A stretch of DNA of 64,000 bases from Alphaproteobacteria bacterium (GCA_030054175.1 JASGCM010000014.1:30154-94153); one strand, 5' to 3'; counted from the first letter of the stretch, positions 37,607 to 46,061 are shown. Program-made: numbers and translations. Notes: generated from the sequence alone by a model not told the origin.

Positions 37607-39430
37607 TTATTCCTCAAAGCCGTGATTCTTGAACTTGAGTTGGTTGCAGTTTTCCAGAACCGCTCGCTGAGTTGACTCATCAAACCCCGTAGCGGCTTCA
37701 GCCTGAATCTCCAAGCTGACCTTGACTTTCACGCCAGGCTTTGATGTGAAGAGCATGAGCACCTCCTCAGCCACTTCAGAGAACTGGAGCTTTGCTTTGA
37801 CCGGGTCGAGCTCGACCTGGCCGAAGAACACAGTCTTCTTTGCGGCCGGGGTCTTGGGTGGGGTGTCACCGCCAGCGCCGCCACTGCCACTCCCTCCTGT
37901 TTCGCCGCCTCCGCCTACTCCAGCACCCGCGCCAGCTCCTCCGCGGGCGCCGGCGCCTTGACCGCCAGCATCGCCTTTAGCCTTGACATCCCGCTCTGCC
38001 TGCTCTTTAGCCAGCAGGTCTGCGAATTTTGCGGCCGCGGGCGGCTCGACTAGCAAGAGAGCGTCGTCAAAGATCACCGTCGTTTGTTCGCCGAAATGGA
38101 AGCCTTGGTAGCGCCCTTCCTCTTCGCCATATGCGATGCCGAAAAAGTCGCGTGAGGAGACGCCTGCCCCGATGGTATTGCGCATAACGAGGTCGTCTTT
38201 GAGTCGGGGAAGATATAGGTAGCAGCAGGTCTTCTGCCATGCCTCGACCGCAGACACCGCAGGCTGATCCTCCTTCCAAAACCACGCTTGCAGCATCTTT
38301 GCCAGGTGGATCGGGGCCCATTCGGTGATGAGCAACTCGTGTTCGCGCAGAACCTTCTCGATTTCTTCCGTGCGATTGACCGCGGCTGGGTTGATCTGGA
38401 AGTGGTCCCATTGCAGATCGCCGATTCCTTTGCTCGGCTTGGCCTCTTGCAGCGGGGCTAGCAGCCACTTGTAGGTCTCGCGCATCATGCGGCCTAAGGC
38501 TTCGGAAGCCTGATCGTGGCTGTGACCCGCGAGCTTGCTCTGATGCACGTCGAGGTTGAGGCGTCCTTCCTTGACGTCGTCAACGATGGACTTCCAGGCG
38601 AGAACCGATGTGACTTGGTCCTTCAAGCGGGACATCGAGTCGGCATCGGGTGCCAGAAAGATCAAGCGGTTTTGCTTCTGCCGCGGCTGGTCGCCGCGCG
38701 TCTTCAAGATCGTCGTGGCCGCATCGATCGCGGCGGATTGGCTCGCGCGTGAGAAAGTCGCCTCGGGAGCTAGCACCACCAAACGGAGCTGCCAATCGTC
38801 CGGCACGTCGGCAGAGCCTGTGAAAACATGTATAAGCACGATGCAGGGAGAGGCAGAAGCCAAGATGTCTGCCAGCGCGCTCTTGCCAGGGGCCGTGCCA
38901 TCGGCGTCCGCTTCCTTGATCTTTGCAAACGCATCGGCTCCGCCAAGCTGCCAGGCGAGCTCGCCCCAGATCGTCTTGATCGTGGTCTTGCCATAGACGC
39001 GTGGCTTGCTGGCCATATCGAGCAGCTCGACGCCATCAAGCACCGCGACCTTCGCCTTGGGAAGCTCAGAGATGCTAGCGTCGTCTAGGATCTTGCTGAC
39101 TCCTTGCAGCTTCGAGGAATGCTTCTCACCCTTGGCCAGGTGGTAGACCGACAGCAGCGTGTGGGTCTTGCCGCCCCCGAACGCGGTCTGCAACTGCACC
39201 ACCGGGTCTCCGCCCCTACCCGCGATACGCTTCACGACGGAGTCGAGCAGAAGGCGCATACCCTCGGTGATGAAGGTCCGCTGGAAGAAGAGCTCCGCGT
39301 CCTGGTATTCAGGCGTAGCTATGCCTTGATGTACCTTCGAGATGTCGGCTGCAAACTCAGCCTGTTGGAACGTGCCCTTGAGAACGTCATCGTGTGGAAC
39401 GGCGATCTCGCGCCAGGGTTTCAATGCCAT
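37607..39430 (-). CDS. DUF499-type P-loop ATPase, apparently internally deleted
   Basis: N-terminus [17 protein letters not shown]...[17 protein letters not shown] and C-terminal half (RLVVLAPE...NRLIFLAPD...[16 protein letters not shown]) both match my memory of DUF499. The protein is only 607 aa and has no hhhhDE Walker B after PCIVLI. Confidence 0.75.
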
Positions 39431-39442
39431 ATTCTCTTCCCC

Positions 39443-39979
39443 TCAAATATCGAGTTTGGTCTGCGAACCGAAGTGCCCCTTTTCATGGGAAGCCGCTTCG
39501 ATGCCAGTCCAGGATGTGATCAGTTCGTTATAGGCGCGGGCGTCATCTGCCCAGCCCTTGCGTTCGCAGAGCGTATAGAGCCGATACGCCAGACTTCGAA
39601 TGGGCTCGGCCCGCTGAGGCATGCCCGCAAGTAGCAGGCCTGCGGCTGTCTCGCCCTGGGACCTGAGCTCTCGGATCAATTGATGAAGCGCTTCCCAGAC
39701 CGGCGTATTGTTGTCCTGCTCGGGAGCCCAGTCCTGTGGATACTCGGCAGGTTTCAACAAGCGAACCTTGCCCGCTCCCGCCTCGATAACTTCGGCATCA
39801 CGGACGTGATCAACAGAAGTGCCTTTCGCCCGAGCAAGAACATCAGCCTTGCCAAAGTCTCCTGCTGACCAGCCTTGCTCGTCGAACCATCCAAGGCAGA
39901 ACTGTGTGTCCGCGTCGAACTCGTCCGCTCCTTCTGTCAGCATGCGATTGATGATCGTTAGAGCTGTGTGTACGCTCAA
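39443..39979 (-). pseudogene. methyltransferase fragment C (C-terminal ~178 aa)
   Basis: (L)[31 protein letters not shown]...[27 protein letters not shown], the typical C-terminal region of DUF1156 methylases. No ATG (the track start is TTG). Confidence 0.75.
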
Positions 39980-45300: not shown

Positions 45301-45822
45301 AAATTTCTCGAACAACTCGTCCTGCCACTGCTCCACAAGGCTCCCAGGAGAGACGATCAAGATGCGAGCGGCATCCGCCCGCATGAGCAGCTCGCGGATC
45401 AGAAGGCCCGCCATGATGGTCTTGCCGGCGCCGGGATCGTCTGCGAGCACGTAACGCAGCGGCTGCCTCGGCAGCATCGACTCGTAGACGGCGGTGATCT
45501 GGTGCGGTAGCGGCTCCACGTTCGACGTGTGGACGGCCATCATCGGATCGAAGAGGTGCGCGAGGTTGATGCGATAGGCCTCGGCCGCGAGCTTGAAGTC
45601 GGCCCCGTCGGCGTCGAAGCTCCATGGCCTACCAATTGAGGCAACATGCAGTTCAGATTCGTTGGAGCGGAAGAGCACTCGCTCTCCCAGTCGCCCATCG
45701 TCGGTCTTGTATACGACAGTAACCGCGTTGTCACCCAGTGGATCCGCGCTTACAACCCGGACAATTTTCCCCGGCTCAATACCGGCTAACTGCGCTCCTT
45801 TGGTTATTTGTTCAAGTTTCAT
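42301..45822 (-). CDS. SNF2/DEAH-family helicase with C-terminal PD-(D/E)xK / DUF3883-like nuclease domain
   Basis: [58 protein letters not shown]. The C-terminal ~110 aa contain CGWDITAV...[21 protein letters not shown]. Confidence 0.88.
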
Positions 45823-46061
45823 TGCCCTGTCCCTTGATCTTGTTCTGATTGTTTTTTGATCCAGGCGTCAATGTCGGCTTTTGAAAAACGCCAGCTTCCG
45901 CCAACTTTGAAAGACGGGATCTTCTTGGCCCCTGCTAAGCGGTAGATGGTTCGCTCGGTTACCTTGAGGTAGTCGGCAACTTCTCCGATGGTCATGATGG
46001 CGTTGTCAGCTGGGCTGGATGGCATGGTCTTAGCCAGGTGGGCGGTAGAAAACGTCAGCAT
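45819..46061 (-). CDS. excisionase/MerR-type HTH DNA-binding protein (start may be 46025 or 45995)
   Basis: [21 protein letters not shown]...GSWRF pattern (HTH_17-like). The stop overlaps the helicase ATG (ATGA). Confidence 0.75.

Follow-up and report, generated by a model that had tools for sequence, protein, structure and literature searches.

A degenerate Hma operon with an HTH_17 leader gene in the putative cargo slot of a serine-integrase element beside tRNA-Ser

The operon and its assignment to Hma

We describe a degenerate copy of the Hma defence operon, with an unusual leader gene, in a 64,000-nt stretch of DNA (hereafter the window; GCA_030054175.1 JASGCM010000014.1:30154-94153) from a metagenome-assembled genome (MAG) labelled Alphaproteobacteria bacterium. 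Read along the minus strand, the operon opens with an 80-aa helix-turn-helix (HTH) gene of the excisionase/MerR-like HTH_17 family (45819-46061; Pfam HTH_17, 8.8e-19). It is followed by hmaA (minus strand, 42301-45822), encoding a 1173-aa Swi2/Snf2 helicase with a C-terminal NOV_C PD-(D/E)xK nuclease, by the methyltransferase gene hmaB, and by a remnant of hmaC (minus strand, 37607-39430) with a 607-aa DUF499 AAA+ ATPase as its product. As found, hmaB consists of three pieces on two strands: a minus-strand 5' fragment (40646-42304; residues 1-553 of the reconstructed protein, with DUF1156, the S-adenosylmethionine (AdoMet) motif FSGGGA and the target recognition domain (TRD) region), an internal segment of 668 nt inverted onto the plus strand (39978-40645; residues 554-776, with the DPPY motif IV), and a minus-strand 3' fragment (39443-39977; residues 777-953). 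The stop of the HTH gene overlaps the start of hmaA, and the stop of hmaA the start of hmaB, each in an ATGA, and the hmaB stop is separated from the hmaC start by a 12-nt gap, GGGGAAGAGAAT.

An original prediction, made from the sequence, had placed four genes joined by these ATGA, ATGA and 12-nt junctions next to tRNA-Ser, and the coordinates and junctions were confirmed. It had also taken all four for whole minus-strand genes, although its proposal of cloning a 'repaired version' hints at damage; this holds for the HTH gene and hmaA, whereas hmaB is split and inverted and hmaC is shortened to 607 aa.

Profile searches were run with PADLOC and Pfam on the four operon proteins and six neighbours, and with PHROG on the phage-type genes. 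Pfam agrees with the domains first named (HTH, SNF2 helicase, a DUF3883-like module, DUF1156 and DUF499): in HmaA it finds SNF2-rel_dom (9.3e-17), Helicase_C (1.7e-23) and NOV_C (8.6e-21, residues 1049-1143), the last being the former DUF3883 PD-(D/E)xK module, in the methylase DUF1156 (3.4e-26), and in the ATPase a weak and short DUF499 match (3.2e-07). The label Hma, which had been offered in the original prediction, is that of the PADLOC models matched by all three core proteins. HmaA is matched with E=0 and 2047 bits (residues 1-1172 against profile positions 2-1171 of 1176), HmaB with E=0 and 1570 bits over profile positions 2-966 of 967 when its sequence is re-inverted, and the 607-aa HmaC product at 2.5e-241 in two blocks, comprising its N-terminal 200 residues and residues 200-607, the latter aligned to profile positions 547-941 of 941.

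HmaA relatives were gathered by a scan of one genome per species, which returned at least 564 stretches, and the best 80 loci were used for counts of gene order and of HTH genes. Full-length HmaB and HmaC follow HmaA in the same order in 51 of these 80 loci, most of the others being cut by contig ends; the genes are co-conserved in other genomes, a point on which the first assignment had been said to turn. An intact compact counterpart (L083) has the identical 4-nt overlap and 12-nt gap, and a second locus (L087) carries HTH-HmaA-HmaB-HmaC, all intact and in the same geometry as the window, with an HmaA 97.5% identical to the window's. The three Hma genes of the window are adjacent and co-oriented, as they are in these two loci. 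Comparison with intact orthologous loci (L083 and L087), which had been suggested from the start together with the profile searches, recovered the same operon and showed the window copy to be broken.

The searches led to Hma models and not to PglZ, expected in bacteriophage exclusion (BREX) systems of types 1-6 and in Type-3 BREX-related systems. Across the four operon proteins and six neighbours, PADLOC and Pfam gave no match to PglZ, BrxA, BrxB or BrxL, and they returned no PLD, DUF1998, HsdS or Res partner there either, in keeping with the absences listed in the original prediction. ORF (open reading frame) calls, Pfam and PADLOC placed no DUF3780 gene between or beside the Hma genes, Pfam found NOV_C and no PLDc match on HmaA, and no second copy of any Hma gene is present in the 64-kb window. 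The mandatory genes mad6, mad7 and mad8 of the methylation-associated defence system (MADS) had no match; only the accessory mad1 model was matched, by the HTH protein.

In an alignment of 71 homologues, the HmaA Walker A (G131-K134), DEAH (229-232) and motif VI (595-605) are invariant, and all 71 also retain D1079, E1098, K1100 and E1115 of the nuclease. Judged by this alignment, hmaA is intact, with all catalytic motifs present. By its profiles and gene order the locus is a Hma system, now classed as Type-1 DUF499-centred BREX-related (BR), in a degenerate copy rather than as a new kind of defence.

The HTH_17 leader gene and the cargo slot

In the 80 genome relatives, hmaA is never preceded by an HTH gene. 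A leading HTH is really unusual among Hma loci but not unique, as L087 has one. Among the features singled out in the original prediction as special to this copy, the leading HTH stands, whereas the helicase-nuclease fusion and the missing DUF3780 are the norm for Type 1 (PMC12839542). The protein itself is widespread, with matches in more than 2,000 protein clusters at E<=1e-8 that are 81-100% identical among the 120 matches listed.

We followed the gene through 80 loci of a metagenome scan (L101-L180) and through homologue look-ups (L087, L091, L095-L100). In the latter, its homologues lead the intact Hma operon already mentioned, type I restriction-modification (R-M) operons (L095, L096), BREX-1 operons (L097-L100) and an SNF2-DUF4391-methyltransferase-Res operon (L091). 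A same-strand ORF begins between -40 and +125 nt of the HTH stop in 72 of the 80 metagenome loci, often in an ATGA. By clustering and Pfam/PADLOC, the first gene after the HTH encodes an SNF2 or HmaA-like helicase in 17 of these 72 loci, HsdM of type I R-M in 16, a small protein with no known domain in 13, a DUF499 ATPase in six, a DruE-like DEAD+MZB protein in five, an Hhe-like DUF4011 protein in another five, a type III Res-like protein in three, a PLD-SNF2 protein in three, BrxA in two and other products in the remaining two. Genes with defence hallmarks make up at least 57 of the 72.

Upstream of the HTH gene, cross-locus conservation marks out a leader region (minus strand, 46062-46131) with two dyads. 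The first, TTTCAATCT-N9-AGATTGAAA (46072-46098), occurs once in the window, and the second is GGCTCA-N5-TGAGC (46116-46131). In 30 loci whose downstream genes are unrelated, the last 45 nt ahead of the HTH ATG are 87-99% conserved, which exceeds the conservation of the HTH codons themselves (0.83, 0.89 and 0.62 at positions 1, 2 and 3). Taken as a whole, the HTH gene and these 45 nt have a DNA conservation of ~90% or more. Conservation drops upstream of about -75 and in the final ~40 nt of the HTH gene. In L112 both arms of the first dyad are altered, each change compensating for the other. Scans of the leader region gave no Shine-Dalgarno sequence, no Rfam match and no consensus sigma-70 hit; a weak -35/-10 pair may lie inside the two dyad arms, with a near-leaderless start, although this is our own reading only.

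The window HTH matches the PADLOC mad1 model at 2.1e-11 and the PHROG family phrog_66, annotated 'excisionase and transcriptional regulator'. Mad1 is described as a dispensable accessory regulator of MADS (10.1101/2023.03.30.534895). The best match in the PDB is BldC (6AMK), at a weak E=0.006. An identity with RptR was considered and rejected, as 9R2Z is not among the results of the PDB search, which yielded BldC only, and weakly.

The leader gene also forms one side of a slot. The order in the window is serS, tRNA-Ser, a 180-nt end, hmaC-hmaB-hmaA-HTH on the minus strand, orf96-Macro on the plus strand, orf144-serine recombinase-DUF2924 on the minus strand and then phage-like genes. The tRNA side of the slot is bounded by a conserved element end (37368-37547), which contains a hairpin resembling a terminator (GCCCCGCACCACGCGGGGCTTTTTGC). 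The tRNA-Ser(CGA) gene (plus strand, 37276-37367; called by ARAGORN) contributes its 3' end to that conserved end. The element end is 89-98% identical to sequences in four metagenome loci (L134, L146, L129 and L178). In L134, the last ~30 nt of the tRNA and the next 180 nt are 92% identical to the window, and there they follow tRNA-Ser(GCT), a different isoacceptor. The same end comes after an Hhe gene in L134 and after type I R-M cargo in L129 and L146, and in L178 it directly abuts the HTH with no cargo, which looks like an empty slot. On the other side, the backbone DUF2924-serine integrase-orf144-Macro-(orf96)-HTH precedes different cargos in at least 20 metagenome loci, and the integrase module stands beside Hma in four other loci (L059, L021, L050 and L061). 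Because elsewhere this backbone and this end enclose an Hhe or a type I R-M cargo, or no cargo at all, the Hma operon appears to fill a cargo slot (~37548-45818) lying between the tRNA-Ser element end and the HTH leader of a mobile-element family.

The integration module (minus strand, 46988-49208) comprises DUF2924, a large serine recombinase of 448 aa with Pfam Resolvase, Recombinase and Zn_ribbon_recom domains, and orf144; PHROG assigns the module to integrase phrog_95 (9.5e-104), phrog_14161 and phrog_11806. Beyond it extends a prophage body (49200-64000) with HTH_3 repressor-like, AAA_24, DUF669 and SNF2-type helicase genes. This body also includes a portal gene (62488-63969) and, at 56974-59277, a prim-pol/DUF3987 primase. 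As the element reaches past position 64000, its far end is beyond the window. On the opposite flank the context is ordinary chromosome, with serS (35418-36740) just upstream of the tRNA-Ser and a RadC-like JAB-domain protein of UPF0758 (33887-34762) just upstream of serS.

Between the leader and the integration module lie orf96 (96 aa, no assigned function) and a 175-aa Macro-domain gene (Pfam Macro, 7.2e-33), together on the plus strand at 46201-47033. The pair is divergent from the HTH gene and travels with it in several contigs. PADLOC searches of Macro, orf96, orf144, DUF2924 and orf163 gave only a weak DarG-like match to Macro (1.9e-4); the pair could have a counter-defence or antitoxin-like function.

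The leader protein might be a recombination directionality factor (excisionase) of the prophage, not a regulator of the operon, with its link to hmaA incidental. Its HTH_17 domain and phrog_66 annotation would suit that role, and so would the fact that in at least 20 loci it is part of the conserved backbone, with the integrase close by. However, an 84-94% identical protein with the same 45 nt heads defence operons that have no integrase in the 7-8 kb of upstream flank (L087, L091, L095 and L097), and the related mad1 is described as an accessory regulator (10.1101/2023.03.30.534895). Further, in those 72 of 80 loci the HTH stop overlaps or abuts the first cargo gene, often in an ATGA, and the HTH would therefore be co-transcribed with genes expected to be on in lysogeny, when an excisionase should be off. 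We consider an excisionase unlikely. The most likely role, which we hold with some confidence, is that of an autoregulating leader repressor, and in the window autoregulation of the operon by the HTH, acting from the conserved dyad at its putative promoter, is probable.

A wider proposal is more tentative, and we would put its chances slightly below even. A cassette of ~310 bp, made up of 45-65 nt with the two dyads and the 80-aa HTH_17 gene, may be a portable, highly conserved front end for many defence operons that are unrelated but all target nucleic acids; in one family of serine-integrase elements at tRNA-Ser it also appears to mark one side of the cargo slot. The operon types behind it include Hma, DUF499-first BR, type I R-M, BREX-1, Hhe, Druantia-like systems, type III-like Res and PLD-helicases. 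If the proposal is true, the cassette would act as a regulatory switch common to these systems, in the manner of BrxR/CapW or RptR although of a different fold family, and would also serve as a homology anchor for the exchange of whole defence systems. In the papers searched we found no description of the HTH_17 leader or of the cargo slot beyond mad1 as a MADS accessory regulator. The 45-nt leader and HTH offer a simple sequence handle for defence cargo, including the ~13 of 72 downstream genes without a known domain, and they point to a testable common regulator of very different defence systems. For these reasons the leader and the slot are a more useful lead than the Hma operon itself.

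The lesions in hmaB and hmaC

The HmaC product of the window, at 607 aa, falls well short of the ~940-990 aa of its relatives. Aligned with L002, its nearest relative of full length (~93% identity where both have sequence), it has one Ile in place of 351 residues, and the missing stretch extends from within Walker B (PCIVL|MDELV) to just short of HVFTGSADV. DNA breakpoint analysis, with alignment to L002-L005, places an in-frame deletion of ~1,050 nt at the junction 38833/38834, and comparison with L083 shows a collinearity gap of ~1,050 nt. The remnant keeps Walker A (GGGKTH), while Walker B and the ~350 residues that follow are gone.

In hmaB, the catalytic middle of the DUF1156 methyltransferase, DPPY included, translates from the plus strand. 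Alignment with homologues puts the breakpoints at 39977/39978 and 40645/40646. The 5' ORF continues into the inverted segment as far as a stop at 40571, so that the ORFs at the methylase are two on the minus strand (40571-42304, 577 aa; 39443-39979, 178 aa) and one on the plus strand (39819-40667). When the 668 nt are flipped in silico, a single 953-aa ORF results, collinear over its whole length with intact homologues 953-954 aa long (P0001, 91% identical; P0002, 83% identical). The restored junctions, one directly after AKD and the other EADGSPM|SVHTAL, agree residue by residue with intact relatives, and no base is gained or lost.

Either rearrangement, or both, could in principle have been made by metagenome assembly, in which case the true genome would have an intact Hma operon. 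The source is a MAG contig, and the exact HmaA protein is recorded on one contig only (run SRR23378605), the very contig that spans the lesions. That Logan contig, on the other hand, comes from an independent assembler and is 100% identical to window positions 37467-55822 (18,356 nt), both lesions included. To produce an internal inversion, an assembler would have to make two exact wrong joins without any repeat to prompt them. The deletion, for its part, leaves a plain in-frame junction, and the frames around both lesions are otherwise clean. We regard an artefact as improbable and, because an independently assembled contig is identical and a repeat-free inversion needs two exact mis-joins, we take the inversion and the deletion to be real. 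Beyond these two events every reading frame is open, which makes both rearrangements look recent.

Given a real inversion, the hmaB segment might be a programmed ON/OFF phase-variation switch, perhaps driven by the neighbouring serine recombinase, that reversibly silences defence. The inversion is perfectly conservative, flipping restores the frame, a CA/TG dinucleotide stands at the inferred crossover, as a serine recombinase would need, and a serine recombinase gene is 7 kb away. The flanks do not support such a device: no inverted repeats border 39978-40645, the best junction dyad matches at 8 of 20 positions, near chance, and the CA/TG dinucleotide is all that the two breakpoints share. 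Nor do related loci, as a tblastn search for inverted hmaB pieces across 74 of them found the minus-strand piece in the window only, and among 5.8 billion clustered proteins no collinear HmaB allele exceeds 91% identity. Moreover, hmaC is deleted independently and irreversibly, and the recombinase belongs to the phage integrase family phrog_95. Because there are no inverted repeats beyond the 2-nt CA/TG microhomology, we rejected a programmed switch, to which we give very little credence, and treat the inversion as a lesion.

The 5' ~80% of hmaB has a GC content of ~0.50 (0.495 for the 5' fragment), low against 0.58-0.60 in hmaA, hmaC and the hmaB 3' end (0.578, host-like, for the 3' fragment). 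A one-off foreign patch tied to the inversion was considered for this and rejected, given that five other loci (L082, L083, L003, L007 and L012) share the pattern, which looks like a family trait. Between the window and L087, DNA identity is 90% through the HTH, hmaA and the first ~870 nt of hmaB and diverges sharply at the TRD, which suggests frequent swapping of the specificity part of hmaB.

Decayed Hma loci also occur elsewhere (L018, L031, L079 and L080, as well as L055 and L063), at about 1 in 10 among those with enough sequence. Their lesions are frameshifts in hmaB or hmaC and two insertions in hmaB, one of ~0.5 kb and one of ~1.7 kb close to residue 762.

Predicted function and relation to known systems

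Hma was named by Payne et al. in 2021, who counted 1,638 instances in 26 phyla (PMC8565338). Rakesh and Krishnan (2026) reclassified it as Type-1 DUF499-centred BR, present in 2,446 taxa, with a helicase-PD-(D/E)xK fusion in 79% of Type-1 taxa, DUF3780 specific to Type 2, and PglZ and iSTAND specific to Type 3 (PMC12839542). Liu et al. (2024) showed that HmaA alone defends E. coli against T4, that its NOV_C is an Mn2+-dependent nickase needing D1084, E1104, K1106 and E1121, and that HmaA under its own promoter is not toxic (PMC11232893). In the Type-2 system MANTIS/Gao_RL, the DUF499 AAA+ ATPase loads a methyltransferase that hemimethylates asymmetric 6-bp sites, and restriction by the helicase-nuclease needs all components and both ATPase activities (bioRxiv 10.64898/2026.09.23.753747). 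The description of such operons as mechanistically uncharacterised, with no published mechanism, is outdated by these studies.

For an intact operon we propose that the DUF499 AAA+ ATPase HmaC would load the DUF1156 N6-adenine methyltransferase HmaB onto short asymmetric sites, where HmaB would mark host DNA with N6-methyladenine, and that unmodified sites on incoming DNA would license the HmaA motor-nuclease to nick or cut. This scheme draws on MANTIS and on Type-1 domain analysis; it is a prediction for Type 1, and its transfer extends only as far as the homology of the ATPase and the methyltransferase.

In the window, little of this scheme is likely to survive. With the 668-bp segment that holds motif IV (DPPY) inverted, the split hmaB cannot, on its sequence, supply motif IV together with the AdoMet-binding N-terminal part, and it should yield no methyltransferase. 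As hmaB is split and hmaC lacks Walker B, sequence-specific modification and modification-dependent restriction should both be off in this copy, and the lesions predict no methylation. By analogy with the reported activity of HmaA, the window's HmaA may nonetheless keep a methylation-independent, stand-alone protection. Damage to both partners with the nuclease intact would fit relief of self-restriction, the loss of hmaC having come first, or later as a suppressor of the methylase loss.

As a system, the locus adds one presumably non-functional case to the thousands of Hma/Type-1 BR loci. It is a clean example of system decay, in which methylase and ATPase were each lost by a single rearrangement and the motor-nuclease stayed intact, a pattern that fits the published evidence that HmaA acts alone and is not toxic without the methylase. 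It also carries a warning for annotation, as automated calls list a 'DUF1156 protein' of 577 aa and a 'DUF499 protein' of 607 aa without marking either as a remnant.

The best explanation for the whole, in which we have considerable confidence, is a decaying Hma operon, led by an HTH_17 gene, that fills the variable cargo slot of a prophage or integrative element with a serine integrase, inserted where the tRNA-Ser gene ends. Several points weigh against it. The window stems from a MAG, and as both assemblies were probably built from shared reads, a population-level artefact keeps a small probability. A second att (attachment-site) copy of the tRNA-Ser 3' end was not found within the window, and the tRNA-Ser site may be used either by the serine recombinase or by an integrase beyond the window. 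The MANTIS mechanism belongs to a Type-2 system, in which the nuclease is a PLD and DUF3780 serves as co-factor. Liu et al. found T4 restriction unaffected by HmaB and reported that 15-20% of hmaA genes are without hmaB or hmaC (PMC11232893).

The idea of a new, mechanistically distinct defence type outside Hma, which was the framing of the original prediction and could appeal to an operon-leading HTH missing from the 80 genome relatives, is hardly credible, since each of the three core proteins is recognised by its Hma model (HmaA over its full length, HmaB likewise after re-inversion, HmaC in two blocks), an intact HTH-HmaABC operon has an HmaA 97.5% identical to the window's, and the architecture equals the published Type-1 BR definition.

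With Hma/Type-1 BR, the window shares the same three proteins in the same order (HmaB once re-inverted, HmaC as a remnant), a Swi2/Snf2 helicase with a C-terminal NOV_C nuclease, a DUF1156 N6-methyltransferase with DPPY and a DUF499 ATPase without a HEPN fusion, and its nuclease D, ExK and E correspond to the essential D1084, E1104, K1106 and E1121 of Halomonas meridiana HmaA. It differs in the inversion that breaks hmaB and the deletion that breaks hmaC, in its compactness, with no embedded genes, whereas 66.5% of hma loci have insertions, and in its HTH_17 leader, absent from 80/80 genome relatives.

MANTIS, with its DUF499 AAA+ ATPase, DUF1156-type N6-adenine methyltransferase and SF2 helicase-nuclease effector, is the best available mechanistic model. 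Unlike the window, it has the DUF3780 co-regulator MtsB, an HKD/PLD nuclease in place of PD-(D/E)xK, and an optional regulator, MtsR, that is Arc/CopG-like and not HTH_17. Type-3 BREX (BrxC, the methyltransferase BrxXI, the helicase BrxHII and PglZ) has homologous ATPase, methyltransferase and helicase cores, and the PADLOC BrxHII and BrxHI models match HmaA at 1e-98 and 5e-95. The window, in contrast, has no PglZ, BrxA or BrxB, and its helicase carries its own nuclease.

The leader resembles MADS mad1, RptR, BrxR/CapW and the C-proteins of R-M systems in that each encodes a small DNA-binding protein, stands at the head of a defence operon based on methylation and has repeats in its promoter. 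The window HTH differs in that it is not RptR, not a WYL protein and not a lambda-cI-like C-protein, and mad2-8 are absent.

The slot, finally, recalls the defence hotspots of P2/P4-type phages and satellites, where interchangeable defence cargo occupies one constant site beside the integration module, with conserved flanks around it. Here the backbone is a different one, composed of DUF2924, a large serine recombinase, orf144, Macro and HTH_17, and the slot lies at the tRNA-Ser attachment end. A further difference from those hotspots is that the window's conserved leader gene is also found in chromosomal defence islands.

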